Source of the DNA: an uncultured delta proteobacterium
GTDB taxonomy: Bacteria; Desulfobacterota; Desulfobaccia; Desulfobaccales; 0-14-0-80-60-11
Direction: 5' to 3'
DNA: 64,000 nucleotides
Assembly: GCA_963709285.1 (NCBI GenBank)
Contig: CAVPVR010000002.1
Span: 65,491 to 129,490 of the forward strand
Both the position numbers and the translations under genes were made by a program. The first letter of the stretch is position 1, and the number at the start of each line of letters is the position of its first letter. The notes beneath the pieces were generated by a model. That model did no database searches. It worked only from the letters and a program-made list of their open reading frames with translations, and had not been told where the DNA came from. This document shows positions 30,833-52,385 of the stretch, one piece after another.

Positions 30833-33800
30833 ATGGCGTTGGTCCGGCCCCTGTCGCAGGTTGTCAGTTCCCGGGTGATGGTGGTGGGCGGGGGCATCGC
30901 GGGTCTTACCGCGGCCCTGGACCTGGCCGCAGTGGGTCTTCCCGTCACCCTGGTGGAGGAAGGTCCTTCCCTGGGGGGCCTGATGGCCCAGTTGGACAAG
31001 ACCTTTCCCACCAACGACTGCGCCATGTGCATCCTGGCGCCCCGGCTGCTGGAAGCGGCCCGGCATCCCCTGATTGAGATCCATACTCTGACCCGGGTAA
31101 TGGGGATGGAGGGACAGCCCGGGGATTTTAGGATACACTTGGCCCGCCGGCCGCGGTACGTGGACCCGGCCAAATGCACGGGTTGCGGGGAATGCGTCCG
31201 GGTTTGTCCCAAACGCATTCCCGACCCCTACAACCTGGGACTCAAGCCGGACCAAGGCCATCCACGTGCCCTTCCCTCAGGCGGTGCCGCAGGCGGCCTA
31301 TATCGACCCGGAGGCCTGCCGCCACCTGCAGGGGCGCGAGGAAACCTCCTGTGTTCAGGTGTGTTCGGCGGGAGCCATCAACTTTGCAGACCAGCCGGAA
31401 ATCTTTGTGAAGGAGGCCGGGGCCGTTATTCTGGCGCCTGGGGCCCGGCCCGCGCCGGTGCAGGACTTTCCCGGGGCCTGGCACCCGGATGTAGTCACCA
31501 GCCTGGAATTCGAGCGGCTGCTGAGTGCCACCGGTCCTCATGAAGGCAAGCTGCTGCGGCCCTCAGACCAGCAGGAGCCCCAGTCCATAGCCTATATCCA
31601 GTGTGTGGGGTCCAGGGACCAGGAGGCGGGCGCGGCTTATTGTTCCAGTCTTTGTTGCTTGTCCAGCCTGAAAGAGGCCCTGGTGGCCCAGGAGCTTACC
31701 CAGGACCGGGCCGCGACCACCATTTTTTACCTGGACCTGAGGGCCCAGGGCAAAGAGCAGGAGCGCTATCTGGAGACGGCTCAGGCCCGGGGGGTCGAGC
31801 TGGTGAGGTCCCGGGTCACTGCGGTCCACCCGCATCTGAAGGGTGGCCTGGCGGTGCGCTACACCGACCCCCGAGGCAGGCCCCAGGAGAGGATTTTTGA
31901 CTTGGCGGTCCTGGCGGTGGGACTCAGGCCGGCGGCGCACCTGCGGGATTGGGCCGGGCGGCTCGGCATAAGTCTCAACGAACACGGATTTATCAAGGAA
32001 GGGCAGCCTTTTTCTCCGGTTACGGGGCGGGAGGGCGTTTATCTTTGCGGCACGGCCCAGGAGCCCATGGACATTACCCTGTCCGTGGCCAACGCCAGCT
32101 CGGCGGCTCAAGCTGCAGCCCAACTCCTGGCCGTGAGCCCCCGGCCTGCCCTGGCCAGGGTGTCACGGGAAAAGCCGCTGAGCACCGATGGGCGCCCCCC
32201 GAAAATCGGGATTTTTCTCTGTCATTGCGGCACCAACATCGCGCGCACCGTCGATCCGGAGGCCTTGAGCAAGATGGTCCGGGAAATCCCCGGGGTGGCC
32301 CACGTGGAGGATTTCCTCTTCAGTTGTTCGGCGGACGCCACCCAAAAGATGGCGGCCATCATAGAGGAGCAGGGTTTGAACCGGGTGGTGGTGGCCGCGT
32401 GCAGCCCCCGCACCCACGAGGCCGTCTTTCGGGAGGTGCTGGCTGCAGCCGGGCTAAATCCGGGGTATCTCGCCTTCGCCAATATCCGGGAGCAGTGCGC
32501 CTGGGTGCACCAGGATGACCCGGACGCGGCCCTGGCCAAAGCTGCAGACCTGGTGGCCATGGCGGGGCGCGGGGCCCTGGAACTGGCCCCCATCACTCCC
32601 GCCACGTATCCGGTGATGCCCCGGGCCCTCGTTTTAGGAGGCGGGGTGGCCGGTATGAGCGCCGCCCTTTCTCTGGCCGACCAGGGCTTTCACACCTATC
32701 TGGTGGAACGCACTCCCCGACTGGGGGGGCTGGCCCGCAACCTGCGCTTCACCCTGGAAGGGTTAAATCCCCTGGAGTTAATCCAGGCCCTCGAAAATGC
32801 AATCTCCTGGCACCCCAACGTGGAAGTGCTCACCCAAACCGAACTGGTGTCCCTGGAGGGTACTGTGGGGCGCTTCCGGTCCCGGGTCCGCCAGTTGATA
32901 CAGGAAGAATGGGAGGAGAGGCGCCTGGAGCATGGGGTGGTGCTGGTGGCCACGGGTGGCCGGGAAATGCAGCCCGAGGGGAGCTATCTTTACGGTGAGG
33001 ACCCCCGAGTGCTCACCCAACTGGAACTGGAGGAGAAGATCAGCACCGGCGGCAAAGATCTGGACCGGGCACGGCGGGTAATCATGATTCAATGCGTGGG
33101 TTCCCGTTCTCCCGAGCGCCCTTACTGCAGCCGCTTGTGCTGCACCGAAGCCCTGAAAAACGCCCTTCTCCTCAAAAAGCGTTATCCCCTGGTGGAGATC
33201 GTTGTCCTCTATCGCGACATCCGGGCCTTTGGCTTCCGGGAATTGGCCTACCAGGAGGCCAAGGAGCGGGGCGTGGTCTTTATTCCCTACGACCCGGACC
33301 GGCCCCCGGAGGTGAGCGCGTCTCGGCGGCGGCCGTTGACAGTGCGGGTCTGGGACGAACTTTTAGAAGAGACCGTGACCTTGCCGGCGGATTTTCTAGT
33401 CCTGAGCGCCGGCATCGAACCGGCGGCGGGGAGCGGCAAGGCGGCCCACCTGCTCAAGGTGCCGCTGGCCACGGGCGGCTTTTTCCTCGAGGCCCATCAG
33501 AAACTCAAACCGGTGGAAACCATGGTGGATGGGGTCTTTATCTGTGGCCTGGCCCACTACCCCAAGAGCCTGGGAGAGGCGGTGGCCCAGGCTCAGGCGG
33601 CGGCCATCCGGGCCGCGGCCCTCCTCTTTCAGGAGGAAATCCAACAGAGTGAAATCTCTGCTATCATACTGAGCGAGAACTGCCAATTATGTCTTGCTTG
33701 TGTGAAAAGTTGTCCTTTTGCAGCCATTGTTGTGGGTGAGGGGGGAATACCCCAAATTATGGGAGAACTCTGCCGGGGCTGCGGGGTCTGCGCTGCGGAG

Positions 33801-33929
33801 TGCCCCGCCGGCGTCATTCGGATGAGCCGTTTTACCGACGCCGAGTTGACCGCCCAGATCATGGCTGCCCTGGAGCGTCCCCAAGGAGAGGAACATGGTG
33901 AGAGAGAGCTATTGCGGTCTGTGCGATGA
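30833..33929 (+). CDS. hdrA: Double-length HdrA-like flavoprotein (two FAD-binding modules plus ferredoxin domains), interrupted by a 1-nt frameshift near 31247
   Basis: GxGxxG appears twice (VVGGGIAGLTAAL, VLGGGVAGMSAAL), along with CVGSRD motifs and C-terminal CxxCxxCxxxCP clusters. Track ORFs 30833-31543 and 31266-33929 join as NLGLK(R)TKAIHVPFPQAVPQ if one C of CCGG is dropped. Compare the paralog sequence NLGLKSRKCIRIIFAQAVP. Confidence 0.75.
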
Positions 33930-34323
33930 CTGCCAGTTGGGCCATCCTGAATTCCTCAAGGCTGTGGCCCTGTTACAGGAATATCTGGACCGCTTTCGGG
34001 CCAACTGGTGGGTCCACTGTTTTCCGGAGAAGGAGGGCTTTAACTTCCCGGAATTCCGGCGAGGGTTGGACTGGTTTTTAGCGCACACGGAGTGCCCGGG
34101 CTGCAAAGGGGGTAAGGGATTGGAACTCTGCCCCATCCGGACTTGCGCCGTGGCCCGCGGGCTGGCGCACTGCTCCCTCTGTCCGGATTTGGTTCCTTGT
34201 GACAAGTTTGACCACCTGCTTGAGCAGTTCCCTGACGTGAAGATCAGCCTGCGCCGCCGTCAGTTGAAGATCAAGGCCATACATTTTCACCAGCAGTTAG
34301 CCGCCATAAAAAAGGAAGGCTGA
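33895..34323 (+). CDS. DUF3795-like Cys-rich protein
   Basis: N-terminal YCGLCDDCQLG and later CPGCKGG...CPIRTC...CSLCPDLVPC motifs. Confidence 0.5.
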   Translation: MVRESYCGLCDDCQLGHPEFLKAVALLQEYLDRFRANWWVHCFPEKEGFNFPEFRRGLDWFLAHTECPGCKGGKGLELCPIRTCAVARGLAHCSLCPDLVPCDKFDHLLEQFPDVKISLRRRQLKIKAIHFHQQLAAIKKEG

Positions 34324-34356
34324 GGGGCCTGACCCGGTTTTGCCGAGTTATTTCCC

Positions 34357-35211
34357 ATGAAAACGTTGGTCCACAAGCGTGAAACCAGAAGCGCCATTGA
34401 ATTGACCCTCCGGATGTACCAGGAGCTGGTAGAGCTGCGCCTGGACAAAACGGCCTGCCTCAAGTGCGAGGTCTGCTCCCTGGTCTGCCCTCGGGGGGCG
34501 GTGGCCGTCACGCCTGCTGACGAGGGCCTGGATATCACCATTGATCCCCGCGTCTGCGTGCTCTGCGAAATTTGCGCCCACTTTTGCCCTACAGGAGCGG
34601 TGAGCTTGAGGCTCAACGGCGTCCCCAAGACTATTTTATTCGACCATCTGGGTCTGGCGGCCTTTTTGGACAAGATCAGGATGGACAAGGAAAGGTGCAC
34701 CGAGCCCTGCCCCCAGGATGAAAAAGGGCAGGAGCACTGGTGCCGGCAGCAGCTGAAGCTGGTGGGAGGCCTGCTCACGGAGTGCCCCAAACACTGCCAC
34801 AAGTGCCTGACTGTGTGCCCCCGTCAGGCCATTGTCCTGGACCCGGAGGGCCTGCACACCATGCCCGAGCCCGACCTGTGCCTGCGCTGCACCCAATGTC
34901 TCTCGGTGTGTGAACAGGAAGCCCTGGCGGTCAACCCCCAGTTCACTGGCGACCTTGACATTGACGACAGCAAGTGCCCGCCGGACTGTATGCTGTGCAT
35001 CGAAGCCTGTCCCGTTAAGGCCATCGTGCGGGAAGGGGAGCGGGTCTACCGGAAGTTAGAAACTTGCAGCTACTGTGGGGTGTGCTACAACATTTGTGAT
35101 TACGAAGCCGTTAGCCTAACCCGGCGGCAGGTGGTGGCCCTCAAGGGGGAATTTTCCCAAGCCTGGGAAGAGGCGGTGAACCGGCTCCTCTCCCGGGAAA
35201 TGGTTCGATAA
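34357..35211 (+). CDS. Polyferredoxin (six 4Fe-4S-type motifs; MvhB/FwdF-like)
   Basis: CLKCEVCSLVCP, CVLCEICAHFCP, CHKCLTVCP, CLRCTQCLSVC, CMLCIEACP, CSYCGVCYNIC. Confidence 0.8.
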   Translation: MKTLVHKRETRSAIELTLRMYQELVELRLDKTACLKCEVCSLVCPRGAVAVTPADEGLDITIDPRVCVLCEICAHFCPTGAVSLRLNGVPKTILFDHLGLAAFLDKIRMDKERCTEPCPQDEKGQEHWCRQQLKLVGGLLTECPKHCHKCLTVCPRQAIVLDPEGLHTMPEPDLCLRCTQCLSVCEQEALAVNPQFTGDLDIDDSKCPPDCMLCIEACPVKAIVREGERVYRKLETCSYCGVCYNICDYEAVSLTRRQVVALKGEFSQAWEEAVNRLLSREMVR

Positions 35212-35235
35212 GTTGCGTTAAGCAAAAAGGCGTTT

Positions 35236-37599
35236 GTGGAACCTGAACTTCGCATCGGCTTATATATCTGTCACTGCGGCCTCAATATCGCCGGGGTCAT
35301 CAGTCCGGAGGCCCTGTCGGTTCAGGGGCAGGGGCTCCCTGAGGTGGCGGTCAGTCGCCATCATTTGTACACCTGCTCCGAAGCCGGCCAAGCCGAGATT
35401 CTGAAAGACATCAAGCACTTTAAGCTTGATCGGGTGGTTATTGCCGCCTGTTCACCCAAGCTTCATGAAGTCACCTTCCGCCGGCTGCTGTCGGAAGCGG
35501 GGCTGAATCCCTACCTGGTGGAAATGGTGAACATCCGGGAGCACTGCGCCTGGGTGCACGCCGGGGAGCCGGAGGCGGCCCAGGAAAAGGCGTTGGAGCT
35601 CATCCGCATGGGGCTAGCCAAGGCGTGTCTGGCGGTCCCCTTGCAAGACCGCCAGGTGCCCATGACCAGGCATGCCCTGGTTATTGGCGGAGGCCCAGCG
35701 GGACTGCGAGCCGCCCTCGATATTGCCCATGCCGGCTACCCCGTAACCCTGGTGGAACGGGAGCCCATCCTAGGGGGCATGGCCAACCGGCTGCATCGCA
35801 CCTTTCCCCGGGGGGAAAGCGCCCTGGCCCTGATCAATCCCCTCATGGCTGCGGTGGCCCTGCATCCCGGCATCCAGGTGCTCACCCAGAGCGAGGTCAC
35901 CGAGGTGAGCGGGCATTTGGGGGAGTTTGCCGTCACGGTGCGGGAGACCCTGCCCCTGGTGGGGGAGGCCTGCGACCGCTGTGGGCACTGTGCTGAGGTC
36001 TGTCCGGTGGTGGTTCCCGATACCGTGGCCGCAGGTCTTGGCACCCGGACTGCCATCTATCTGCCGGCCCCCCATGCTTTTCCCGGCCGCTATGTGGTGG
36101 ATCTGGAGCACTGCGACCGCTGCGGCGAGTGTATAGCTGCCTGTCCCCAGGAGGCCATCAGCCTGGAGGAAGGGGAACGAGAGCATCACCTCACCGTGGG
36201 GAGCATCGTGGTGGCCACGGGCTTCACTCTCTTTGATACGGCGGGGAGCCGCTATGAGAACTGGGCTGACCATCCGGGAGTTGTCACCACGGTGGCCCTG
36301 GAGCGCCTTCTGGCGGGGGCAGGACCCACCCAGGGAAAGGTAAGCCTTGCCGATATTCCAGAAGAGGTGCGGGATGTGGCTTTTCTGCTGTGCGTGGGCT
36401 CCCGGGAGGAGGAGGGCAACCGTTACTGCTCCCGGGTGTGCTGCCCCACGGCCTTGAAGCAGGCCCTGGAGCTGAAAAAACGCCTCCCGGAGGCCCGCAT
36501 TCGTATCTATTACCGGGACATCCGCACCAACAAAAAAGACTGGGAGGCCCTTTACACCGAGGCCCGGGAAGCGGGGGTGCTGTTTTTGCGGGGGCGGGTG
36601 GAGGAAGTAAAAGCCGCCCAAGATGGGGGCCTGCTCATTCGTGCCTTTAACGAGACCTTTCAGGTTCCCACCGAAGACCGGGTGGACCTGGCGGTCCTGG
36701 CCGTGGGCATGGTCCCCGGGAACGGCGCCGCTCTCCGGGAGGTGTTGAAGCTGCCGGTGGGACCGGACGGCTTTTTCATGGAGGCCCACCCCAAGCTCAA
36801 GCCCCTGGAGACGGTGCTGGACGGCATTTTTCTGGCCGGGGCCTGTCAGGGTCCCAAGGACCTGGCCGAATCCTTCACCCAAGGAAGCGGCGCGGCCGCC
36901 AAGGTTCTGGCCCTCTTTGCCCACGAGACCATCACCCTGGACGGCCTGGTGGCCCAGGTGGACCCGGAGGTCTGTGTGGGCTGCGGGGAATGCGCGGCAG
37001 CCTGTCCGTTTCAGGCCATGGAGATGGTGGGGGAGGAAGAAAAGCAGCAGGCCCAGGTAGTTACTGCAGCCTGCAAGGGCTGTGGGGTCTGCGCCGGCGC
37101 CTGTCCTACGGGGGCGGTCATCCCCGCGGGGTTTACGGACGAGATGATCCTGGCTCAGATCGACGAGGCCTTGGCGGAGGCTCCGGAACAGAAAATTTTG
37201 GCCTTTTGCTGCAACTGGTGCTCTTATGCCGGGGCGGACTTCGCCGGGGTGTCGCGGCTGGCCTATCCCCCCCAAGTGCGCATTATCCGAACCATGTGCT
37301 CTGGCAGGATTCACCCCAAGTTTATCCTCCATGCGTTTGAGCGGGGCGCCGGCCAGGTTTTGATCTCCGGTTGCCACCCTCCGGGGGAATGCCATTATAT
37401 TTCTGGAAATCTTAGGGCTCAGGAGCGGGTGGAAAAGCTCCGGCCCAAACTTGCCAAAAAAGGCATCGACCCTTCCCGCCTGCGGCTGGCGTGGGTTTCA
37501 GCCACGGAAGGGAGGGCATTTCAACGGGTCATTGAAGAAATGGCCGCGGCCCTGGAGCCTGAAGAGACGGTCAAACAAGCGAGCGGTCAGGGGAAATGA
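35236..37599 (+). CDS. hdrA: HdrA-like flavoprotein fused to a C-terminal MvhD-like domain
   Basis: LYICHCGLNIAG N-terminal cluster, VIGGGPAGLRAAL FAD motif, CVGSRE, ferredoxin motifs, and a C-terminal ILAFCCNWCSYAGAD...ISGCHPPGECHY (MvhD signature). GTG start. Confidence 0.85.
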   Translation: MEPELRIGLYICHCGLNIAGVISPEALSVQGQGLPEVAVSRHHLYTCSEAGQAEILKDIKHFKLDRVVIAACSPKLHEVTFRRLLSEAGLNPYLVEMVNIREHCAWVHAGEPEAAQEKALELIRMGLAKACLAVPLQDRQVPMTRHALVIGGGPAGLRAALDIAHAGYPVTLVEREPILGGMANRLHRTFPRGESALALINPLMAAVALHPGIQVLTQSEVTEVSGHLGEFAVTVRETLPLVGEACDRCGHCAEVCPVVVPDTVAAGLGTRTAIYLPAPHAFPGRYVVDLEHCDRCGECIAACPQEAISLEEGEREHHLTVGSIVVATGFTLFDTAGSRYENWADHPGVVTTVALERLLAGAGPTQGKVSLADIPEEVRDVAFLLCVGSREEEGNRYCSRVCCPTALKQALELKKRLPEARIRIYYRDIRTNKKDWEALYTEAREAGVLFLRGRVEEVKAAQDGGLLIRAFNETFQVPTEDRVDLAVLAVGMVPGNGAALREVLKLPVGPDGFFMEAHPKLKPLETVLDGIFLAGACQGPKDLAESFTQGSGAAAKVLALFAHETITLDGLVAQVDPEVCVGCGECAAACPFQAMEMVGEEEKQQAQVVTAACKGCGVCAGACPTGAVIPAGFTDEMILAQIDEALAEAPEQKILAFCCNWCSYAGADFAGVSRLAYPPQVRIIRTMCSGRIHPKFILHAFERGAGQVLISGCHPPGECHYISGNLRAQERVEKLRPKLAKKGIDPSRLRLAWVSATEGRAFQRVIEEMAAALEPEETVKQASGQGK

Positions 37600-39218
37600 T
37601 AACCAAGACCCAAGTTCTCTTGTGCGCCTGCCCGGACCTCAAGGTGGAGGTCCAGAACTTGGCCCAACGCCTCTCCCAGGCCGGGCTGAGGGTCGAAGTA
37701 TCCCCGCCTCTCTGCACCCCCGCGGGTTTGGAGGAATGGGGGCCACGCCTGACGGCCGAACCCCGGGAGTGGCTGGTGGCCGCGTGCGGACCGGCACAGC
37801 ATCACGGCCTTTTTCAACGTCTGGCCGGGGATGAACCTCTGGCCATGGTGGATCTCCTAGCCGCAGACGATCTGGAAAGCGCTGTGGCAGCCGTCCTCCT
37901 GGCCCAAAAGGAGGAAATTCGCCTGGTTTCCGCGGGCGCACCCCACAGCCGGGAGGTGCTGGTGGTGGGGGGCGGGGTGGGGGGCTGTCAGGCCGCCCTG
38001 GACCTGGCCAATGCCGGTTTCAAGGTACATCTGGTGGAATCCTCCCTCTCCATCGGTGGCACCATGGCCCAGTTGGACAAGACCTTTCCCACGCTGGACT
38101 GCTCCATCTGCATCCTGGGACCCAAGCTGGTGGAAGCCGCGGCCCACCCCTTGATTGAGCTCCTCACCTTTGCGGAAATCACCGGCATTTCCGGCCAGGC
38201 CGGGCGATTTACGGTGGATGTGACCCTGAAGCCCCGCTATGTGGACATGAGCCGGTGTGTGGGCTGCGGCAGTTGCGTCCAGGTCTGCCCGGTCATTGTT
38301 CCCAGTCGCTGGAACCTGGGGCTCAAGTCCCGCAAGTGCATCCGCATCATTTTTGCGCAGGCGGTGCCCCTTATGGCCACTATCGAAAAAGAATACTGCA
38401 TCGACTGCCAGATGTGCCTTGAGGCCTGTGAACACGGGGCCATTCACCCTTTGTCCCGCCCGGAGGAACGGCGCCTCGAGGTGGGGGCGGTGGTTCTGGC
38501 TACCGGGGCCCGGCCCTTTGACCCGGCCATTCAGAGTGAATACAGTTATGGCCGTCTCCCCGGGGTCCTCACCAACCTGGAGTTCGAGCGCCTGGTGTGC
38601 GCCACCGGTCCTACTCAAGGACATCTCCTGACCCCCGCCGGGCAACCGGTGAAGCGTCTGGCCTTCATCCAGTGTGTGGGCTCCCGGGACCGGCGCTTCC
38701 TGCCCTACTGCTCGGGCTACTGCTGCACTGCGGCCATCAAGCAGGCCATGCTGACCCTGGAGCATGAACCCGACGCCGAGGTCACCATCTTTTTCAACGA
38801 CATCCGCACGTCGGGGAAGGGCTTCGAGGAACTCTATTTGCGGGCCCAAGCCGCGGGAGTGCGCTTTACTAAAGGTCTGCCGGGGCGTATCGAGGCGGGG
38901 GAGGCTGGCAGCCTCATAATCATTTATGAAGATCAGCAAGGCGGCCAGCGGGGCCGTCTGCCCGTGGACCTGGCGGTCCTGTCCGTAGGCCTGACCGCAC
39001 CCCGGGAGGGACTCCCCTTCACAGAGATCGGGCCGGTGCGGGACAACCTGGGATTTTATGACAGCCGGCACCCGATCCTTCATCCCCTGGAGTCCACGGT
39101 GCCGGGAGTCTTTCTGGCCGGCACCGCCCAGGGGCCCCGGGATATTTCTGAAACGGTGTGCACCGGCAGCGGGGTTGCGGCCCGGATCATCAACCTGCTC
39201 AATTCTCTGCCCCAGTAG
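37596..39218 (+). CDS. hdrA: HdrA-like flavoprotein (third paralog, with a distinct N-terminal extension)
   Basis: VVGGGVGGCQAAL, DKTFPTLDCSICIL, CVGCGSCVQVCP and IQCVGSRD motifs. Its start overlaps the upstream stop (ATGA). Confidence 0.8.
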   Translation: MITKTQVLLCACPDLKVEVQNLAQRLSQAGLRVEVSPPLCTPAGLEEWGPRLTAEPREWLVAACGPAQHHGLFQRLAGDEPLAMVDLLAADDLESAVAAVLLAQKEEIRLVSAGAPHSREVLVVGGGVGGCQAALDLANAGFKVHLVESSLSIGGTMAQLDKTFPTLDCSICILGPKLVEAAAHPLIELLTFAEITGISGQAGRFTVDVTLKPRYVDMSRCVGCGSCVQVCPVIVPSRWNLGLKSRKCIRIIFAQAVPLMATIEKEYCIDCQMCLEACEHGAIHPLSRPEERRLEVGAVVLATGARPFDPAIQSEYSYGRLPGVLTNLEFERLVCATGPTQGHLLTPAGQPVKRLAFIQCVGSRDRRFLPYCSGYCCTAAIKQAMLTLEHEPDAEVTIFFNDIRTSGKGFEELYLRAQAAGVRFTKGLPGRIEAGEAGSLIIIYEDQQGGQRGRLPVDLAVLSVGLTAPREGLPFTEIGPVRDNLGFYDSRHPILHPLESTVPGVFLAGTAQGPRDISETVCTGSGVAARIINLLNSLPQ

Positions 39219-39254
39219 AGGGCCTTGCAGACCTTGTGAAATATAGAGATAATA

Positions 39255-39283
39255 ACTTTGAGGACTTTGACAAAAGACTTTGG
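39255..39283 (+). promoter_or_regulatory. Three direct ACTTTG(A/G) repeats upstream of the Ubl-like gene
   Basis: AACTTTGAGGACTTTGACAAAAGACTTTGG read directly. The half-site is the same as in the 25907 palindrome. Function unknown. Confidence 0.25.
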
Positions 39284-39297
39284 AAAGGCGAACTAGC

Positions 39298-39672
39298 ATG
39301 TCGGATATTCAGATAAAACCGGAAGAACAACCGAAAAAATTACAAAAACCCTTGCCCCTGGTCCTGGAGATCATTCCCGGGCAGGCCGGGGAGGGGCTCG
39401 TGGTGGTAATGGAGCCAGGGAGCTACGAGGGCAGCACCCTGAGGGAGCTCTGTGATCAGGCTTTGAGCCGCCCCGACTTCAGCATCGAGGAGCGCCAGAT
39501 TTTAGAGGACATCCAGCGGCAGCTTCAGGGTGGCAAGCTCCTTTGCCAGGGCCGGGACCTCGACGGACCCGCCCAGGTCTTCGGAACCGTTGAGGAGACG
39601 GAAGCCGGGGAGGCTTATCTTTATGTGCCTGTCCGGGCCATCAAGCCTCAGGAGGGGGGCCTCTTCCCTTAA
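39298..39672 (+). CDS. Ubiquitin-like (beta-grasp) protein candidate with C-terminal GG followed by LFP
   Basis: 124 aa from the ATG at 39298, with a GGAAAGG RBS 8 nt upstream. It shows a beta/alpha alternation compatible with a beta-grasp fold, ends ...YLYVPVRAIKPQEGG-LFP, and sits in an operon with E2-like, JAB and E1 genes. Confidence 0.5.
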   Translation: MSDIQIKPEEQPKKLQKPLPLVLEIIPGQAGEGLVVVMEPGSYEGSTLRELCDQALSRPDFSIEERQILEDIQRQLQGGKLLCQGRDLDGPAQVFGTVEETEAGEAYLYVPVRAIKPQEGGLFP

Positions 39673-39675
39673 GGA

Positions 39676-40878
39676 ATGGGAACGGGAGCGGGGATGTGGA
39701 GGTGTTTTGAAGCCGACCTGGAAATCCTGGTGCACCGGGGCCACCTGTACCTTCCCCTGGTTTTAGATCCAGAGATCAACCAGGAGATTCAGGCCCCGAT
39801 TTCCCCAAGTTATTCGTGGGATCAATCGCCCGGCGGGCTCAGCCGTTCACCGGTGCCTACGGTCCTGGCTGTCCTGGATAGATGGTTCGTCCAGGCGGTG
39901 AGCGCTTCCTCCCTGGTTGACAACTACGCCCAGCTTTTTCCCCAAGACCACGAAGACCGCCGGCGGACTCTCCGTGAACAATACTCTCTGACCGCGGACC
40001 TCTTTGGGGTGGCCCTGGACCCCCACCTGGTCGCCATCGTTTTTCACATTTTACCCCATTTTCTCAGGCGGGATGGATTTCAGAGACGGCGGCGCTTACA
40101 GGAGGGGGAGGTCCTGGATTTCATCCGGGAGCGAGTCCAGGTGCCCCACTACTTCGACCAACAAGCGCGGAGTTTCCTGGATGTCAATCCTCTGAAGGAG
40201 GCCCTCCGGCGCCTGGAAACCGTTCATCTTGAGCCCAAACCACCTCCAGAGGGATTGGTGCCGGCAGCCGATCTGGGGGCCTGGTGGGAGGAGGTCCTAA
40301 CAGCCCAACTTCTGGCCGAGGAGCGCAACCGCCTCTTCCAGGAGATCGAGGAACGGGAGCACTGGGCCACGGCTCAGGAAAGTCGTCTGGCGGTTCTGCT
40401 CTATTTAGCTCAAAAAGGGTCCCTGGAACTGGACGGCTTCGGGTTCTCCCGGATGAGGCGGGGCCAGGATTACCGGGTTTACAAGCGCACCGGGCCCTAT
40501 GCCCTCCAGGACTTTTATGGCCATTTGTACCTCTTCCCGGATTGCCGGGTGGCGGTCACCACTTTGGGGCGCCTGCGGCCCGTGGTGGTGGATCACTATA
40601 AGCACCCGTTCCTGAGAAGGTACGCTTCTGGCCAGGAAATCTGCATAGGTCCCGAAAGCAGTAATCTTTCTTTTTCGGCAAAAAACGCCATCCAGGTCCT
40701 GGAGGAAGGGATCAACGCGCTCTTGTACAGCTACGACGGCCGGCACCGCGCCGGCTACCACAGACTGTTTGTGCTGCCGGGGATGATGCGACTGGTGGAC
40801 TTCGAAGACATTCGCATCCCGAAGGACCACCCCCTCATCGTCTCAGGGAAAGTGGAAGTGAAGAACCGGGCCACCTGA
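39676..40878 (+). CDS. E2/UBC-like protein candidate with a large N-terminal extension
   Basis: The C-terminal region YLFPDCRVAVTTLGRLRPVVVDHYKHPFLRRYASGQEICIGPES...AIQVLEEGINALLY mirrors the UBC layout (FP..., HPN-like HPF, G-x-x-I-C-[LI], following helix). The candidate catalytic Cys323 codon is at 40642-40644. Confidence 0.45.
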   Translation: MGTGAGMWRCFEADLEILVHRGHLYLPLVLDPEINQEIQAPISPSYSWDQSPGGLSRSPVPTVLAVLDRWFVQAVSASSLVDNYAQLFPQDHEDRRRTLREQYSLTADLFGVALDPHLVAIVFHILPHFLRRDGFQRRRRLQEGEVLDFIRERVQVPHYFDQQARSFLDVNPLKEALRRLETVHLEPKPPPEGLVPAADLGAWWEEVLTAQLLAEERNRLFQEIEEREHWATAQESRLAVLLYLAQKGSLELDGFGFSRMRRGQDYRVYKRTGPYALQDFYGHLYLFPDCRVAVTTLGRLRPVVVDHYKHPFLRRYASGQEICIGPESSNLSFSAKNAIQVLEEGINALLYSYDGRHRAGYHRLFVLPGMMRLVDFEDIRIPKDHPLIVSGKVEVKNRAT

Positions 40879-40879
40879 C

Positions 40880-41287
40880 ATGGACCTTAAGGACTCTTTT
40901 CGCCGGGACCGGCTTCGGGGGAAGGAGAAGGAGCCCTGGGCCCCCTCCCTGTTCTCTCAGGTCGGAGGGCTGGTGCGGCGTCATCGACTGGGAGAGGCAT
41001 TTTGTCAGCTTCTCGGGCAGATGACTACGGCAAGTGCGGAAACCTTAGCGCAGACCCACCGATCTGCTCCCAAGGCCCCTTTCGAGCCACCCCTGTTTTT
41101 TTTGGCCACCGCAGAGGATTATCAGGTGATTCAGAAAATTCTCTCGGGCCTAAACAACCCCTACCTGGCTTGGGCCTGCAGTCCGGAGGAAATTCTTCTG
41201 TCGCCAACCCTGTGGAGCCGGCGTCCCGGCCTTGACCCAGAGGTGCTGGCCACCCACCACTTTGCGGCGTTGCTTTTACATGATTAA
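40880..41287 (+). CDS. Hypothetical protein of the Ubl operon
   Basis: 135-aa ORF starting 1 nt after the upstream stop. No family recognised. Confidence 0.5.
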
Positions 41288-41289
41288 AT

Positions 41290-41340
41290 TTGAGAGGAGG
41301 GCTGGGGGAGCGCGGCTCCCCCACTCTCCCCCCAAAAAAC
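41290..41340. repeat. G/C-tract hairpin repeat copy
   Basis: GAGAGGAGGGCTGGGGGAGCGCGGCTCCCCCACTCTCCCCCC is palindromic and lies between the 135-aa gene and the clpX-like gene. Confidence 0.5.
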
Positions 41341-41364
41341 CTGTTCACATCACAAGGAGTACTC

Positions 41365-42468
41365 ATGCCGAATGGCATAACTGATGAGAAGCGGCGGCGC
41401 CTCGAAGAAAAGATGGAGCAGTTTCGGGAACGTCAGATAGACGAGGCGGTGCAGCACATCCTTGAATTCGACAAGACTCCTACGACCCTGAAGGCCGAAG
41501 TGGACCGGTTCGTCATCGGCCAGGAGAAGGGGAAAAAGATTATCGCCACGGCCATCGCGTTCCATTATAAGCGGCTGGGTGCCGCGTTGAAGCGCACCTT
41601 GGGAGAACACAACGGCAGCATCGAGAGCGCCCTCAAGAGCACCCGTACCCCCAAGGCCAACATCCTCATGGTGGGTCCCACCGGGTGCGGCAAGACCTAC
41701 ACCAGCGAGACCGCCTCGGAGCTGGTGGGGGTGCCCTTCGTGGTAGAGGACATGACCAAGTTCAGCGAGGTGGGCTACGTGGGCATGAATGTCAGCGACA
41801 TCCTGGTGGACCTCCTCATCTCCGGAGACGGCAACCCGAATGTGGCCCAGATGGGTATCGTCTACCTGGACGAAGTTGACAAGATTGCCGCCGAGACCTC
41901 CACCGTCCGGGATGTTTCGGGGAAGGGAGTCCAGAAGGGTCTTCTCAAGCTGGTGGAGGGGGTGGACAACACCCTGGAGATCGGCAAGGAGCGTTTCTCT
42001 CTTTCCACCAAGCACGTGCTGTTTATTGCCGGGGGGGCTTACGACAGCCTGGAAGGCATCGTCAGGAAGCGCCTGGCCCGCCTGAATGTGACGGGCGACT
42101 GGCGGGACCACCTGGCCACCGAGGACCTGGTTTCCTTCGGTATGGAGCGCCAGCTTGTGGGCCGCTTCCCGGTCCGGGTGGTGTATGATCGCCTCACCAC
42201 CCAGGAACTCCAGGACATCCTGACCAAGAGCGCCGACAGTCCCCTCCGGGCTTACGTCCAGGACCTGGAAAGCTGGGGCATCGACCTGAAATACACCGAG
42301 GAGGCCCTGGGGGAGATCGCCCGCCGGGCCAAGCGGGAGGGCACCGGGGCCCGGGGACTGGTGGGCATCCTCCACCGGGTGCTGCTCGAGGACATGTTCC
42401 GCCTACCCGGCAACTACACGGGAGAGCTCATGATGGACGGAGCCTACATCCGGGAGAAACTGGGATGA
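41365..42468 (+). CDS. ClpX-like AAA+ unfoldase lacking the Zn-ribbon, RKH and IGF (ClpP-docking) elements
   Basis: VIGQEKGKK, Walker A GPTGCGKT, pore loop GYVG, Walker [30 protein letters not shown], and sensor region GARGL. There is no N-terminal C4 domain and no GIGF motif. A CAAGGAG RBS precedes the ATG at 41365. Confidence 0.85.
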
Positions 42469-43262
42469 GGTTCAAGGCCCTCAAGGACCTGAGCCGGACG
42501 GCGCCCCAGGAGATTGTGCTGGCCTCTCTCCCGGAGCAGGTCCTGATGACGGACTTTGCCAAAGCCAAGGCCTTTGCGGTGAGTGAACTGGTGCGCCGGG
42601 TGCATGGGGAGGCGTTCGAGTGGTACGGCTTCACCCTGGCGGAGCGGGCCCGGCCGGAGGTCATCGTGGATGTGGGGCTTCCCGAAAACGACGAGAACCA
42701 GGAGACTTACACCAGCATCAGCCCGGAACGTATTGCAGCTTACCAGGAAACCCTACCGGCCGGGCAGATAATCAACGGCTGGCTCCACTCCCACGGCGCT
42801 CTGGAGTACCGTCAGTTCTCCCCGGTGGACGACCTCAACCAGGCGACGGTGCTGGACTACGTCACTTCCCTGCTCAAGATGCCCGTGGCCAAAAAGGAGG
42901 TGGTGATCCGGGATTTGACCTTCCTGTTGTTGGATGAGGAGGAGGCCGCAATCCAGGCCGCAGGCAGCGTCACCCTCCTCACCGATGTGCCGGTGGGCCG
43001 GGCCAAACTCCTGGAGACCATTTATGGGGGCTTCTGCTTCGGCATGGTCATCGGTGACAAAGGCTGGACCAAACAGGAGATCCATTACAAAACCCGGGGC
43101 GTCCTCACCGGCGAGACCCTGGTGAGCAAACGGGAAGCCGACCTGACCCTGGTGGCAACCGGGAAAAACCTCACGACCTCGGACCTGGAGGCCCTGGAAC
43201 TGGAGGTCAAGGAACGTATCCGACCCATTACCTATACCCCGGAAAAGCTGGAGCGGGGGTAG
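42465..43262 (+). CDS. JAB/MPN+ (JAMM) metalloprotease-like protein
   Basis: Upstream Glu (GEAFEWYGF) and [18 protein letters not shown] (H-x-H-x8-S-x2-D, one residue longer than the canonical x7), encoded at 42786-42830. Its start overlaps the clpX-like stop (ATGA). Confidence 0.7.
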
Positions 43263-43432
43263 GGGGAAAGGCAAATTAAAGTATCACTGGAATGTTGGGG
43301 TTGATTTGGTAATTGCATTTTTTTCTTTTCCCATATCTAAAAAGAATTTTTATATCTAATTTATTCTTTTAGATTTTGTTTAGATAGTTAAAATATACTA
43401 GAAGTTACTAAAAAGATGATGGTACTAACTTC

Positions 43433-44431
43433 ATGATTGAGTCTTGCGTATGGCGCCGCCTTTGTCGTCCCGAGGTTGGGATTCCGAACTCGATAAGTGA
43501 TCTGATTGCCCGGGAAGAATGGCTGAAAGGGGATTTTTTAACTTCCGTACGTATGGGGCCAACACTATTTATAGCGAGTGATTATGGTGGAGCGCACAAG
43601 GGTGCTGTATATGAGACCCTCTCGTTTCTCATGGCCGACTTGACATATGTTTGGTTATTTGACGAATTGCGTACAAAGCTACGCAATGAAGCGGTTCTAA
43701 AAAGTCGCCGTATGGCATACAAATCTTTAGGCGACCGTCGGAGACAAGAAGCACTTGTGCCGTTTCTTCGATCGGGTAACACGATCCCGGGACTTCTAAT
43801 GAATATTGTATTAGATAAAAACGCCTCCCAATTACTTTCAGAATCCTATCAACCTAAATTTGCCTTTGGCGAACTTAGCCATTGGTGTAAAGGGTCCTTT
43901 GAAAAACTCACGCGCGTTGGACAACTGGGAGCGATGCTTGTTGAGGGAATGTGCGCTCCAGGTCAGAATGTATTATGGATTTCTGACGAAGATGAGATAG
44001 CGCCAAACAGAGAGAAGTTGTTTGAGGCAACTAACGTTTTAGGCCATTACCTGAATCATTTCTGTTCTAATCAGATGGGGCACATGAGATTTGGAACTAC
44101 AAACGTGGACAATGGCAACCTCCGAATTGAAGATCTTGTCGCGCTCGTTGATCTTGCAGCTGGATGCCTCTCGGAGATCTTTACGCAAACGATGAAACTG
44201 TTTGGAAGCCCTGCAAGCAAAATCCTTATACCTGGGACGCACTCGTCATCTAAGAAAGCAAGAATTATTGCAAATTGGATGGCCCAGGGTAATCATCCTC
44301 TGAAGAAGCTAATCGTGTTGGTTGAAGCTCAAAATAATTCTTATATCACGAAAGTCGTAAACTTTTATCCAGAAGGCACAACAAACATTTTCGACTGGGT
44401 AGCCGATTTCGAGGAGTTGCTCAGAAATTGA
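43433..44431 (+). CDS. Hypothetical protein on a low-GC insertion
   Basis: 332-aa ORF, visibly AT-richer than its neighbours and preceded by a 170-bp AT-rich spacer. No family recognised. Confidence 0.6.
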   Translation: MIESCVWRRLCRPEVGIPNSISDLIAREEWLKGDFLTSVRMGPTLFIASDYGGAHKGAVYETLSFLMADLTYVWLFDELRTKLRNEAVLKSRRMAYKSLGDRRRQEALVPFLRSGNTIPGLLMNIVLDKNASQLLSESYQPKFAFGELSHWCKGSFEKLTRVGQLGAMLVEGMCAPGQNVLWISDEDEIAPNREKLFEATNVLGHYLNHFCSNQMGHMRFGTTNVDNGNLRIEDLVALVDLAAGCLSEIFTQTMKLFGSPASKILIPGTHSSSKKARIIANWMAQGNHPLKKLIVLVEAQNNSYITKVVNFYPEGTTNIFDWVADFEELLRN

Positions 44432-44497
44432 CTACTTCTAACTCTTTGAATTGTTTGACGTTTTAATATGTTAGCATCTTAGCGTTAGAATGTGAGT

Positions 44498-44728
44498 ATG
44501 AAGAATTCACCGAAACGAGCCACCATCTACTTCGAATCCGACCTGCACCGGGCCTTACGGGTGAAGGCGGCGGAGGTGGGCCAGTCGATGTCCGAACTGG
44601 TCAATCAGGCGGTGAAGCTTTCCTTGGCCGAGGACGCTAAGGATATAGCGGCCTTCGAGGAGCGCCAGCACGAACCCAGCCTGCCCTTTGAGGACGTCCT
44701 GAAAGACCTCAAGATAGGGAAGGGCTGA
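44498..44728 (+). CDS. Ribbon-helix-helix (CopG/antitoxin-like) protein, orphan
   Basis: KRATIYFESDLHRALRVKAAEVGQSMSELVNQAV is a typical RHH beta-strand plus two helices. No adjacent toxin ORF is seen. Confidence 0.7.
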   Translation: MKNSPKRATIYFESDLHRALRVKAAEVGQSMSELVNQAVKLSLAEDAKDIAAFEERQHEPSLPFEDVLKDLKIGKG

Positions 44729-44734
44729 GAGCAA

Positions 44735-44820
44735 GTCCCCCTTTGACAAAGGGGGATTTAGGGGGATTTTCGAGGGGTCAGGAAAAATCCCCTGACCCCC
44801 CTTTATTAAAGGGGGGGATT
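44735..44820. repeat. Family A nested-palindrome element, copy 2 (inverted)
   Basis: Its reverse complement aligns with 45058-45140 and 29466-29549 (…CCCCCTAAATCCCCCTTTgtcAAAGGGGGAC). Confidence 0.8.
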
Positions 44821-44852
44821 TTAAGCATAGGATATGCTAAGGAGCATTAAGG

Positions 44853-45041
44853 ATGGCAGAGCATTGGTGTAAAACCTGCTTTTTCAGAGGCCAATATGAC
44901 AAAAACCCCCAGTCATTGTTGGGGAGATTGTGGAAATGGCATGCCAACTGGTGCCCGGGCTGGAAATCCTACATGAGATCCATCCCGGATGAGGAACGCC
45001 TGGAATTAGCCGAAAAATATGATTTACCCAAATTCAGGTGA
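44853..45041 (+). CDS. Hypothetical small CxxC protein
   Basis: 62 aa reading MAEHWCKTCFFRG...WCPGW, with an AAGGAG RBS upstream. It is bracketed by inverted family A repeats. Confidence 0.45.
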   Translation: MAEHWCKTCFFRGQYDKNPQSLLGRLWKWHANWCPGWKSYMRSIPDEERLELAEKYDLPKFR

Positions 45042-45057
45042 AGCGACTGCCTATTTA

Positions 45058-45140
45058 CCCCCCTTTCTTAAAGGGGGGGTAGGGGGGATTATGTAAGGCT
45101 TTGATAATCCACCTAAATCCCCCTTTAGAAAAGGGGGACT
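45058..45140. repeat. Family A nested-palindrome element, copy 3
   Basis: Near-identical to 29466-29549 in the same orientation. Confidence 0.8.
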
Positions 45141-45218
45141 TTCAAAGTTCAATCCTGAAGTGACTCAGATAATGAGCCTGGTAATTCATGGAACACTACA
45201 TTAGCTGACTAAACCATT

Positions 45219-46721
45219 GTGACCTTGCCTGAAAACACCTATTTATCCCGGGATGAAGCAACTCCGGACGAGCGCCTGGACCGGCAGGTGCGCATTCCGG
45301 GGTGGAACCAGGAGGCGTTGGCCCAGGCCCGGGTGGGGGTGGTGGGAGACGACCCCTGGCTCACTGGCCTGGTGGTGACTTCGGCTGCGGCCCTGGGAAT
45401 CAACCGGCTGACGGTGGTGGCCCCGGACCTGGACCCCCGCTTGCTCTCGGCGACCCGGGGGCTTAATCCGGAGTTCAACCTTGCCTGGTTCCCAGGCTTT
45501 TTCAGCCATTCCCTCCTGGAGGACCTGCTCCGGGAATGCACCGTCCTGATTGACCTGGGCCACCACGGCCTGGCCACCAAGCTCCTCCTCAATCTGGCCC
45601 AAAGGAAAGGTCTCCCCCTGGTGCGGGCGTCTGACTTTGAGGAGGATGGGGTGGCGGGCCTCAGGCTCTTCACCTATCAGCCAGGCCGGGAATGGCGGGA
45701 ACTCCTGGAAGTGCTTCCTCAAGCCCAACTTCCTTCCCGGTGTCAGGGCGACCCGGTGCTGGCTCTGGTCACGGTGGGGCTGGTTCTCGAGGAAACCAAA
45801 AAGCTCCTCCTGGGGGAGGCGGTAACACCGGAGGTGATCTCATACTCTCGGGCCAGCTTAAAGACATTTAATTTGAGGGAGAGGGCTAGGGGCCGTGAGC
45901 CCCTACCCCCTCCCTCAAACTCCCTCCCCCAACCCCTTAAGGGGGAGAGAAATGCTGTAAAGTCGGGGCAAGCTGCCCCGACTTTACAAGCACATTGCGG
46001 GATGGGAGGGGGGCTTGATGGGAAGAAAGGGACCGGTAGCATGGGCTTCCAGCCCGTGGCACCCTGGCCTTACCCTCATGAGCTCATTTTTCTGGATTCC
46101 CCCATCGCGGTGGTGGGCGCCGGGGCCCTGGGGAACTTTGTGGCGTTGGGGTTGGCCGCTCTGGGCTTCACCCGCCTCACCTTTATCGATCCGGACCCGG
46201 TGGAGGTCACCAATCTGAACCGTCAGGTTCTCTTCTGGGACGCCGTGGGACAGCCCAAGGCCGAGGCGTTAGCAGAAAAAATCAAGGAGTGGTTCGGGGT
46301 GGCGGTCAGGGCTGACACGACATACATCACCCGGGAGACTGACTTGCGCGAGTTTGCCGTGGTGTTCGACTGCACGGACAATTTTGCCAGCCGCATTATC
46401 CTGAGCGAAAAGTGCCGGGAATATGGCCAAATCCTCATCAGCGGCGGCACCGGGGTGGAGGCCGGACAGGTAGTGGTCTTCGACCCCGCGCAAGGCGGCC
46501 CCACCCCCGCAGAGCTTCTGGGGCTTTATGACATCGTGGGACAGCGTGACATCGACGTCAAAGAGCGGGAACGGGCCTCCTGCGTCTATGCCCCTGAAGC
46601 CGCCATAATCATGACCAACCAGATCGTCGGGGGCCTTATGGTGGACACCCTGAGAAGACTGCTTACGGGAGAGCCGGCACCCAACCTCTTCTACGACGCC
46701 CGGAGTGAAAGGATGATTTAG
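45219..46721 (+). CDS. E1-like (ThiF/MoeB/UBA family) activating enzyme with a degenerate N-terminal and an intact C-terminal adenylation domain
   Basis: The C-terminal half, IAVVGAGALGNFVALGLAALGFTRLTFIDPDPVEVTNLNRQVLF...FDCTDNFASR, is a classic ThiF fold. The N-terminal half has a Rossmann-like layout but a degenerate loop (VGVVGDDPWLTG). GTG start. Confidence 0.8.
   Translation: MTLPENTYLSRDEATPDERLDRQVRIPGWNQEALAQARVGVVGDDPWLTGLVVTSAAALGINRLTVVAPDLDPRLLSATRGLNPEFNLAWFPGFFSHSLLEDLLRECTVLIDLGHHGLATKLLLNLAQRKGLPLVRASDFEEDGVAGLRLFTYQPGREWRELLEVLPQAQLPSRCQGDPVLALVTVGLVLEETKKLLLGEAVTPEVISYSRASLKTFNLRERARGREPLPPPSNSLPQPLKGERNAVKSGQAAPTLQAHCGMGGGLDGKKGTGSMGFQPVAPWPYPHELIFLDSPIAVVGAGALGNFVALGLAALGFTRLTFIDPDPVEVTNLNRQVLFWDAVGQPKAEALAEKIKEWFGVAVRADTTYITRETDLREFAVVFDCTDNFASRIILSEKCREYGQILISGGTGVEAGQVVVFDPAQGGPTPAELLGLYDIVGQRDIDVKERERASCVYAPEAAIIMTNQIVGGLMVDTLRRLLTGEPAPNLFYDARSERMI
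45873..46062. repeat. G/C-tract hairpin repeat modules inserted in frame inside the E1 gene
   Basis: TTGAGGGAGAGGGCTAGGGGCCGTGAGCCCCTACCCCCTCCCTCAAACTCCCTCCCCCAACCCCTTAA matches the intergenic element at 57548-57616. It also contains the hairpin AAAGTCGGGGCAagcTGCCCCGACTTT and a GGCTTCCAGCCCGTGGCAC motif. Confidence 0.7.
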
Positions 46722-46935
46722 GGGGGAAATATGCGGGAGAGGGGGGAAAGGGTCACAGACCCTTTCCCCCCCACTCCCAATCCCTCACATTAAGCGGGAG
46801 CAGAGGCTTCCAGCCTGTGTAGGAACAGGTAGGATGCCTGTTCTCCCGGTCAAGGGGAAGTGGGAGGAGGGTGTGGGAAGAGGGCATGTAAGGGCGGGTT
46901 TAAAACCCGCCCCTACGTCCCCGGCCTCCCCTCCA
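46719..46935. repeat. Cluster of repeat modules (G/C-tract hairpins plus the GGCTTCCAGCCTGTG/GAACAGG...CCTGTTC module plus the GGGCGGGTTTAAAACCCGCCC hairpin)
   Basis: Read directly. Positions 46795-46865 are the inverted counterpart of 55050-55125. Confidence 0.7.
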
Positions 46936-46944
46936 ACTCATGCT

Positions 46945-52354: not shown

Positions 52355-52385
52355 TCCTTAGGGCTTGGGTGATAAGGTAATACAA

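Follow-up and report, generated by a model that had tools for sequence, protein, structure and literature searches.

A putative ubiquitin-like modifier precursor encoded with a candidate conjugation cascade and a ClpX-family unfoldase in Desulfobaccales

Results

Gene module at the locus

A stretch of 64,000 nucleotides from contig CAVPVR010000002.1 of an uncultured delta proteobacterium of the Desulfobaccales (assembly GCA_963709285.1; hereafter the window, to which positions without a locus prefix refer) encodes a small protein that ends in a Gly-Gly pair (GG) followed by three further residues. We propose that this open reading frame (ORF) encodes the precursor of a ubiquitin-like protein (Ubl) acting in a protein-tagging cascade, in which a JAMM peptidase trims the precursor, an E1-like enzyme activates it, a 400-residue protein (p400) may serve as E2, and a ClpX-like ATPase may serve as unfoldase. 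Our rough probability for this reading is 0.6. The Ubl gene is the first in a tightly packed gene row, which begins 80 nucleotides after an HdrA-like gene. The features of the Ubl gene and of the genes that accompany it are as follows.

39298..39672, + strand: Ubl precursor gene, 124 residues plus stop (ORF translation, homologue search, AlphaFold 2 model)
39282..39288, + strand: Shine-Dalgarno-like GGAAAGG, 9 nucleotides 5' of the ATG (direct sequence reading)
39298..39354, + strand: variable N-terminus, residues 1-19, predicted disordered (without alignment consensus; confidence score below 50 for residues 1-15)
39355..39642, + strand: predicted beta-grasp core, residues 20-115 (AlphaFold 2 with 70 sequences, core confidence score above 90; 28 invariant columns)
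39646..39660, + strand: invariant PQEGG, residues 117-121, predicted processing and activation site (present in 191 of 192 distinct homologues)
39661..39669, + strand: predicted removable tail Leu-Phe-Pro (LFP) (tail hypervariable among homologues)
39676..40878, + strand: p400, with an N-terminal helical region and a C-terminal domain at about residues 246-400 (conserved motif; always follows the Ubl gene)
40543-40545: p400 C290 (FPDC), invariant in the close family, Ala or Gly in distant members
40642-40644: p400 C323, the universal cysteine after the HP motif
40880..41287, + strand: p135, a small conserved protein, always directly 5' of the ClpX-like gene
41365..42468, + strand: ClpX-family AAA+ ATPase, 367 residues from the ATG at 41365 (NCBIfam and PDB matches)
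42465..43262, + strand: JAMM/MPN+ peptidase (JAB), 265 residues (invariant motif residues; its start overlaps the ClpX-like stop as ATGA)
45219..46721, + strand: E1-like activating enzyme (PF00899, E 8.6e-39, above the Pfam threshold)
46581-46583: invariant E1 C455, after an insertion of about 30 residues in the crossover region

The Ubl ORF runs on the + strand from the ATG at 39298 to the TAA at 39670-39672, and its product ends in ...YLYVPVRAIKPQEGGLFP. We favour this ATG over the TTG at 39280 because most homologues begin at the equivalent Met (MSD, MTD or MAD). In the preliminary description of this DNA, the two glycine codons had been placed at 39655-39660 with three residues (LFP) behind them, and the ORF translation agrees, the glycines being G120 and G121. 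That description had also given the protein an N-terminal extension of about 35 residues, which proved too long: the variable, disordered part spans only about 19 residues, and residues 20-38 (PLVLEIIPGQAGEGLVVVM) are highly conserved and predicted to form strands 1 and 2.

Conservation of the Gly-Gly motif and variability of the tail

A search of 5.8 billion proteins returned 738 Ubl homologues at E<=0.01, none of which has a protein name or contains a Pfam domain. Their named sources are Desulfobacca, Desulfobaccales, Syntrophobacteraceae and metagenome-assembled genomes (MAGs) labelled 'Deltaproteobacteria'; two homologues, 83% and 81% identical, come from Desulfobacca acetoxidans according to UniRef. 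Desulfobacca acetoxidans is a cultured species. For statistics on the C-terminus, 120 homologues among those listed were combined with the best 80 loci of a scan of one genome per GTDB species, on which all locus counts below also rest, giving 192 distinct sequences. Identity across several orders and phyla is 54-90%, and 28 alignment positions are invariant, P117-Q-E-G-G121 among them. The seven residues that precede the tail are IKPQEGG in 173 of the 192 sequences and [ILV][KRQ]PQEGG in the rest, bar one frameshifted MAG copy. Because the protein has 738 homologues and the PQEGG is near-universal, an ORF ending in this manner is not a chance feature.

Conservation falls off abruptly right after GG. 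The residues that follow number between 0 and 48 (median 3) and make up 130 different tails, and 11 homologues terminate exactly at GG. In the closest clade the tail takes the form x-[F/S/Y]-P and hence is not wholly free there. The homologue alignment thus bears out the suspected pattern, with GG kept in 191 of 192 sequences and a tail that varies in both length and sequence. An invariant GG ahead of a hypervariable tail is what one classically expects of a modifier that has its C-terminal glycine exposed by cleavage.

In three MAG species the Ubl frame runs directly past GG into a 150-residue GNAT acetyltransferase (PF00583, E 2e-18), and homologous GNAT genes stand alone elsewhere:

L014:10001-10816, L015:10001-10816 and L026:10001-10816: Ubl-GG-GNAT fusions, with a RimI-like GNAT in frame after GG
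L023:14661-15104 and L063:5628-6047: stand-alone homologous GNAT genes between JAB and E1 in Methylomirabilota loci

Fused and stand-alone GNAT sequences share 46-49% identity, which suggests that the acetyltransferase is an optional member of the Ubl system. The fusions are the strongest sequence-level argument for GG as a putative internal processing site.

Predicted fold of the Ubl protein

Run on the single sequence, AlphaFold gave an unusable model with a predicted local distance difference test score (pLDDT) of 53. With 70 homologues the mean pLDDT rose to 84.4, with values above 90 for residues 21-110. The modelled elements are strands 21-27 and 34-38, helices 48-57 and 63-76, strand 80-83, a short helix 92-95, and strands 97-100 and 106-115; the PQEGG-LFP end is flexible and of lower confidence, as pLDDT drops after residue 115. 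This beta-beta-alpha-beta-beta-3_10-beta order is that of the ubiquitin beta-grasp, plus one extra helix and one extra strand. The top Foldseek matches of the model, all weak, are mostly Ubl domains, including GABARAP/Atg8, ubiquitin and the EccD Ubl domain. Based on this topology and on these weak, mostly Ubl matches, the model likely represents a beta-grasp fold. The beta-grasp prediction of the preliminary description therefore stands as far as the order of elements is concerned, but its Foldseek support is not significant.

At the level of sequence the protein is an orphan. No match was found in Pfam, NCBIfam or PADLOC scans, and a profile search of PDB sequences found no relative. With hhalign, the Ubl profile matches ubiquitin over 15 residues and MoaD over 10 residues only, in both cases around strand 3 and not significantly (the ubiquitin, MoaD, E2 and E. 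coli ClpX comparison sequences used in this work were entered by hand).

E1-like enzyme and JAMM peptidase

The E1-like protein consists of a degenerate N-terminal adenylation-like domain (residues ~15-222), a long linker and an active-type ThiF domain (residues 293-488), whose nearest PDB matches are MoeB, Uba4 and ThiF at ~1e-13. In all 59 of 59 orthologues the residues G300/G302/G305 (GxGxxG), N332-Q336 (NLNRQ), D384/D387 (DxxD) and C455 are conserved. The N-terminal half retains the RxDRQxRI of a ThiF start and has lost GxGxxG, and appears to be an inactive adenylation domain. An inactive and an active adenylation domain in one chain have been reported for BilD and for eukaryotic E1s (PMC10557695). 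PADLOC returned only generic similarity to Cap2 for this protein.

Compared with its orthologues, which are mostly 411-440 residues long, the window E1 carries about 70 extra low-complexity residues between its domains (linker residues 222-292). The linker DNA (45875-45989) contains an inverted repeat with a perfect 16-bp stem at 45955-45989 and, by eye, an imperfect one at about 45875-45916. The extra stretch may stem from a small repeat element that inserted in frame.

A JAMM gene had been placed in the same operon, and the gene at 42465-43262 indeed encodes the JAMM motif. Its residues E52, H108-S-H110, S119 and D122 are invariant in 53 orthologues and follow the pattern E...HxH-x7-S-xx-D, with a spacer of 8 residues here and of 7 in the distant relative at locus L087. 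The window protein scores below the Pfam cut-off for JAB/Prok-JAB (E 0.23; 11.8 bits against a cut-off of 25), and 33 of the 53 orthologues match PF14464 Prok-JAB below threshold, with a best E of 4.6e-4. NCBIfam and PADLOC scans gave no match, and a profile search of the PDB found no credible relative, Rpn11-like 6fju appearing at E 1.2.

p400, a candidate E2

Among 1.84 billion cluster representatives, a full HMMER scan yielded only 212 relatives of p400. Its C-terminal domain contains the invariant residues Y308-K-H310-P311...Q320-x-I-C323, and of 209 full-length family members, 206 show the pattern Y-x-H-P-x(7-12)-[ILV]-C, among them versions that lie beside archaeal-type genes. In three hhalign runs against UbcH5B and ten E2s, p400 falls in register with E2 beta3-beta4, HPN, the catalytic Cys and the following helix (alpha2), at E-values of only 0.15-0.5. 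Because of this motif and of its gene position, we regard p400 as a candidate E2. The protein has no match in Pfam, NCBIfam or PADLOC, ten distant relatives have none in Pfam, and two profile searches of the PDB, one with a very diverse alignment, gave no credible relative.

Other assignments were considered and set aside. The QxICxG of p400 resembles the QACxG of caspase-like proteases, but the His lies only ~13 residues before the Cys and an SHG-type context is missing. C290 was rejected as the catalytic residue, being Ala or Gly in distant members.

ClpX-like ATPase and p135

The ATPase scores 267 bits against the NCBIfam ClpX model, under the cut-off of 359, and its alignment with solved ClpX structures (1e-59) has gaps where these carry the RKH and IGF loops. 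It groups with the ClpX/HslU clade and not with the Rpt/Cdc48 clade. Like canonical ClpX it keeps an AAA+ module with Walker A and B, the GYVG pore-1 loop, the sensor and arginine motifs and TGARGL. It differs from canonical ClpX in that the C4 zinc-binding N-domain, the RKH loop and the IGF loop are missing in 60 of 60 orthologues, and in a 13-residue insert before Walker A. The IGF loop of ClpX is the ClpP docking element. Since this loop is missing, the ATPase is predicted to be incapable of docking ClpP, and it should translocate polypeptides without feeding them to ClpP.

In 56 of 57 loci JAB starts 0-3 nucleotides from the end of the ATPase gene. This suggests coupled translation and possibly a complex of the two products. 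The gene for p135 precedes that of the ATPase. Pfam, NCBIfam and PADLOC contain no match for p135, and profile searches found no credible PDB relative; a match to bL20 (E 0.005) was treated as chance, as it involves a basic helical stretch.

Distribution and organization of the module

Relatives of the module occur in 116 of 185,579 species representatives. The 80 loci come from Desulfobaccales, Syntrophobacterales, Desulfobacterales, Desulfarculales, Methylomirabilota, Acidobacteriota and Binatia. The recurrent order is Ubl, p400, p135, ClpX-like ATPase and JAB, with E1 on either side; all six genes are present in 53 of 80 loci, and the remaining loci lie mostly on truncated contigs. The ThiF-type E1 gene adjoins this row in 68 loci in two arrangements, directly 3' of JAB in 30 and directly 5' of the Ubl gene in 38. 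That E1 changes sides and yet stays linked is good evidence, at the level of gene order, of a functional tie to the Ubl. No further gene family flanking the module is common to more than 30 of the 80 loci, and within lineages the module occupies a stable chromosomal position.

Several loci hold reduced clusters. L016 (1528-5681) and L070 (9959-13278) have Ubl-p135-ClpX-like-E1 with no p400 or JAB nearby, and an aspartate kinase gene lies upstream of both. L056 has E1-Ubl-p400-JAB without p135 or the ATPase, and L020 has Ubl-ClpX-like-JAB.

Distant relatives

More distant systems, found through p400-like proteins, have a similar layout. At L088, beside archaeal-type EF-1alpha and S10 genes, a 126-residue protein ending in ...VRPQEGG-YLC is accompanied by a p400-like protein, a Prok-JAB and an E1, with no ATPase. 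L090 and L091 encode a protein ending in ...AEEGG-DLEYRIDR, followed by a p400-like protein, JAB and E1. On the 2.9-kb contig of L089, a protein ending in ...HEEGG-RARTLEERLRR precedes a p400-like protein, and a third gene is cut by the contig end. L087 encodes a protein ending in ...SKQEGG-AYLI, a p400-like protein, a JAB (HSH-x7-SPTD), an E1 and a ClpX-like gene. Finally, L085, which also holds a TFIIB gene, encodes a small protein ending in ...HELG plus 12 residues, then p400-like, ClpX-like, JAB-like and E1 proteins. The Ubl end thus takes the form [QE]EGG in L087-L091. With hhalign, the Ubl profile aligns with the L087 and L085 proteins over the full length, ending at the glycines, at E 0.006 and 0.03. 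A homologue search with the L087 Ubl returned two proteins only.

These distant modules sit on low-GC contigs, with archaeal-type neighbours in L085 and L088, and only some of them include the ClpX-like ATPase. Such an ATPase is unusual for archaea. Judged from these gene orders, the ancestral core is Ubl-p400-JAB-E1, the same order as bilABCD, and the p135 and ClpX-like pair is a putative addition in some branches.

Genomic surroundings in the window

Between JAB and E1 the window contains an insertion that lies outside the core module:

43263..45218, + strand: low-GC variable insertion (GC 41-52% against ~60% in the flanks)
43433-44431: p332, a 332-residue ORF
44492-44728: ribbon-helix-helix (RHH) antitoxin-like gene
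44853-45041: p62, a 62-residue CxxC...C protein

Most related loci lack the insertion and have E1 either right behind JAB or in front of the Ubl gene. Pfam, NCBIfam and PADLOC scans gave no match for p332 or p62. The p62 gene recurs at the same spot in the Desulfobaccales relatives L001, L005 and L007-L009, and the rest of the insertion is variable.

Immediately 5' of the Ubl gene, a run of HdrA-like flavoprotein and 4Fe-4S ferredoxin genes extends over 31266-39218. Desulfobaccales genomes and five MAGs farther removed (57-66% identity) have the last HdrA-like gene (37596-39218) at the same place; its adjacency to the Ubl gene may be plain synteny or a functional link. A promoter and terminator scan of 39000-47000 was uninformative, the sites being fewer than in shuffles. 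Farther downstream, two small overlapping genes of 90 and 121 residues at 52365-52999 resemble a toxin-antitoxin pair, whose products we take to be like DUF433-type and PIN/DUF5615-type proteins.

Discussion

Proposed mechanism

Our analysis points to a cascade that begins with the JAMM peptidase, which would cut after Gly121 and take off the tail (LFP here, and other tails or the whole GNAT domain in relatives). The tandem E1 would then adenylate the exposed Gly-Gly carboxylate on its C-terminal ThiF domain and form a thioester at Cys455. From there the Ubl would move to Cys323 of p400 and be joined to amines of target proteins. The ClpX-like ATPase, as a stand-alone unfoldase or remodeller, would unfold or extract Ubl-tagged proteins, with p135 as a possible adaptor, and the JAMM peptidase would also remove the Ubl from its targets and so recycle the tag. 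We infer cleavage after GG, thioester transfer, conjugation and the role of the unfoldase from sequence comparison, and our confidence differs from step to step. That a GG-processed Ubl is activated by the E1 is highly probable, given the strong comparative evidence for trimming and activation and the precedent of BilC and BilA. Conjugation to proteins through p400 as the E2 has slightly better than an even chance. Action of the ATPase on the conjugates, proposed because of the gene coupling and the loss of the ClpP-docking loop, is more doubtful, and we put it forward tentatively.

Two observations weigh against the proposed cascade. No Foldseek match of the Ubl model reaches E<0.001, and the hhalign comparisons of p400 with E2s never reached significance.

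Alternative explanations

The pairing of a GG end with a nearby JAMM gene and a ThiF-type enzyme is also the signature of CysO/Mec+ and QbsE/QbsD (gene neighbourhoods in PMC1779556), and the protein could be a sulfur carrier of the ThiS/MoaD/CysO/QbsE type: the JAMM peptidase would trim it, the E1 would adenylate and thiocarboxylate its GG, and the sulfur would pass to a metabolite or cofactor with no protein being modified. The best PDB matches of the active E1 domain (MoeB, Uba4 and ThiF) would suit this role, as would a sulfur-metabolising host lineage with Hdr-like genes upstream. However, no rhodanese, cysteine desulfurase, cysteine synthase or cofactor-biosynthesis gene is part of the conserved module or recurs in its flanks. 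The E1 joins a degenerate and an active domain in one polypeptide with an invariant Cys, as in the conjugating E1 BilD, and is unlike the homodimers of the MoeB type. In addition, a ClpX-type unfoldase and an HP...C protein fit poorly in a sulfur relay, and similarity of the Ubl to ThiS/MoaD is limited to a 10-residue stretch. We therefore consider a sulfur carrier improbable. Slightly less probable still is a non-covalent role, in which the protein would be an adaptor or regulatory subunit of the ClpX-like ATPase, or a plain N-terminal domain, with PQEGG as a binding motif and a tail that is never removed. Such a role would accommodate a Ubl fold match that is not significant and the inferred nature of cleavage and conjugation; the GNAT fusions would possibly be ordinary two-domain proteins, and in L020 only the Ubl, ClpX-like and JAB genes are found together. 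It is at odds with the tight linkage, in two gene orders, to an E1 whose adenylation motifs are intact and whose Cys is invariant, with the 11 homologues that end exactly at GG and the drop in conservation right after it, and with the relatives L088 and L090, which lack the AAA+ protein and still keep Ubl, p400, JAB and E1.

A further alternative concerns purpose rather than chemistry. The same cascade could serve in anti-phage defence, as Bil does, with the Ubl placed on phage proteins and the unfoldase dismantling phage assemblies. Bil and CBASS type II, the nearest systems that have been characterised, act against viruses, the module is patchy (as its small share of the species representatives attests) and modular, and the JAB-E1 junction in the window took up a low-GC insertion with a toxin-antitoxin-like RHH gene. 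Against this, no component matches a PADLOC model, bar the generic similarity of the E1 to Cap2, and a search of 2.9 million IMG/VR viral contigs found no relative. The Ubl is also unusually conserved for a defence protein, as seen in its identity range and its number of invariant positions, and the chromosomal position within lineages is stable, as shown by the upstream HdrA-like genes of Desulfobaccales and five further MAGs and by the upstream aspartate kinase gene of L016 and L070. Defence is thus an unlikely purpose, though a likelier alternative than either of the other two. A more specific form of the tagging cascade, which we offer as speculation and rank above defence, is housekeeping Ubl tagging in which the tag is read by a ClpP-independent ClpX-family unfoldase complexed with a JAMM deubiquitinase. 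Such a system would be a counterpart, built from different parts, of Rpn11 with an AAA+ partner (the proteasome base-lid or Cdc48), with ubiquitin-style Ubl-GNAT fusion precursors, and would occur in bacteria and on archaeal-type contigs.

Relation to known systems

Comparable systems known from prokaryotes are CBASS type II (Cap2/Cap3), Bil I/II, Bub I/II, Caldiarchaeum-type Ub operons, SAMPs and Pup. Type II Bil comprises the Ubl BilA, the E2 BilB, the JAB peptidase BilC and the E1 BilD (Chambers et al., PMC10557695), and BilC has been shown to pre-process BilA, which is made with residues after its reactive Gly (PMC10557695). The module described here resembles Bil in having a JAB in the operon, a Ubl with residues after the reactive Gly, a single-chain E1 with an inactive N-terminal and an active C-terminal domain and a Cys near the crossover loop, and, in the relatives L088 and L090 that lack the AAA+ gene, the gene order Ubl-X-JAB-E1. 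However, PDB profile searches with the Ubl, p400 and JAB returned no Bil chain, nor was there one among the best 60 of 64 PDB matches of the E1. Ahead of its Cys the E1 has an insertion of ~30 residues, against ~80 in the BilD CYS domain, and a conserved four-Cys zinc site is missing. The candidate E2 is a 400-residue protein with a large N-terminal region. The window module further has two conserved genes beyond a Bil set, for p135 and the ClpX-like ATPase. Its Ubl shows high conservation, and its surroundings give the impression of a stable chromosomal location.

Outside the Bil systems, eukaryotic ubiquitin precursors likewise carry extra residues or a fused protein after GG, ubiquitin being made fused to ribosomal proteins much as the Ubl is fused to GNAT in one lineage. 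The Ubl differs from ubiquitin in its extra structural elements and in a sequence similarity limited to a 15-residue stretch. The coupling of a JAMM gene to that of an AAA+ unfoldase that forms rings and keeps its pore loop intact recalls Rpn11-Rpt of the 26S proteasome and Cdc48. In the present case, though, the ATPase belongs to the ClpX/HslU clade, the module encodes no proteolytic chamber, and a JAMM-ATPase complex is suggested by gene overlap only.

With CysO/Mec+ of Mycobacterium and QbsE/QbsD of Pseudomonas the module shares a small predicted beta-grasp protein and, as proposed here, trimming of residues past GG by a JAMM peptidase encoded nearby and subsequent ThiF/MoeZ-type adenylation. 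Genes for cysteine synthase or for cofactor biosynthesis accompany CysO and QbsE in their operons, in which the E1 carries a fused rhodanese domain (PMC1779556). Neither those genes nor a rhodanese are present here, where a tandem E1, an HP...C protein and an unfoldase are found instead. The preliminary description had drawn its analogy with these two pairs, which fits the processing step but is not the best model of the whole system; a Bil-type cascade with an unfoldase describes it better.

Coupling of a protein tag and its processing or deconjugating enzyme to an AAA+ unfoldase is also known from actinobacterial Pup-Dop-PafA-Mpa and from archaeal SAMP/UbaA/HvJAMM1 with Cdc48/PAN. Pup is disordered and ligated by glutamine-synthetase-like enzymes, and Mpa delivers to the 20S proteasome; for SAMPs an E1 suffices, and the unfoldase is encoded outside the operon. 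Here, by contrast, the tag is predicted to be a folded beta-grasp protein activated by an E1, and a ClpX paralogue is encoded inside the module. No dedicated unfoldase is known from CBASS type II, Bil or Bub. We found no description of a ClpX-family ATPase inside a Ubl/E1/JAB operon in the searchable literature, which leaves out most subscription journals. The best reading of the comparative evidence is a new form of the prokaryotic ubiquitination-like systems, whose Ubl is an orphan by sequence and which brings its own ClpP-independent unfoldase.

Biological implications

Characterisation of bacterial ubiquitination-like systems such as CBASS type II, Bil and Bub is recent, and those characterised serve in defence against phages. 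To these the module would add a sequence-orphan Ubl family with textbook precursor features, as well as relatives in contigs with archaeal-type genes. The proteins are small enough for in vitro reconstitution, making the system testable. The gene coupling of a JAMM peptidase to an AAA+ unfoldase is an arrangement central to the eukaryotic proteasome, here on a ClpX scaffold stripped of its ClpP-docking loops. Finally, the module seems to be vertically stable and strongly conserved in anaerobic sulfate reducers, syntrophs and Methylomirabilota, a hint that its role is cellular and not defensive.

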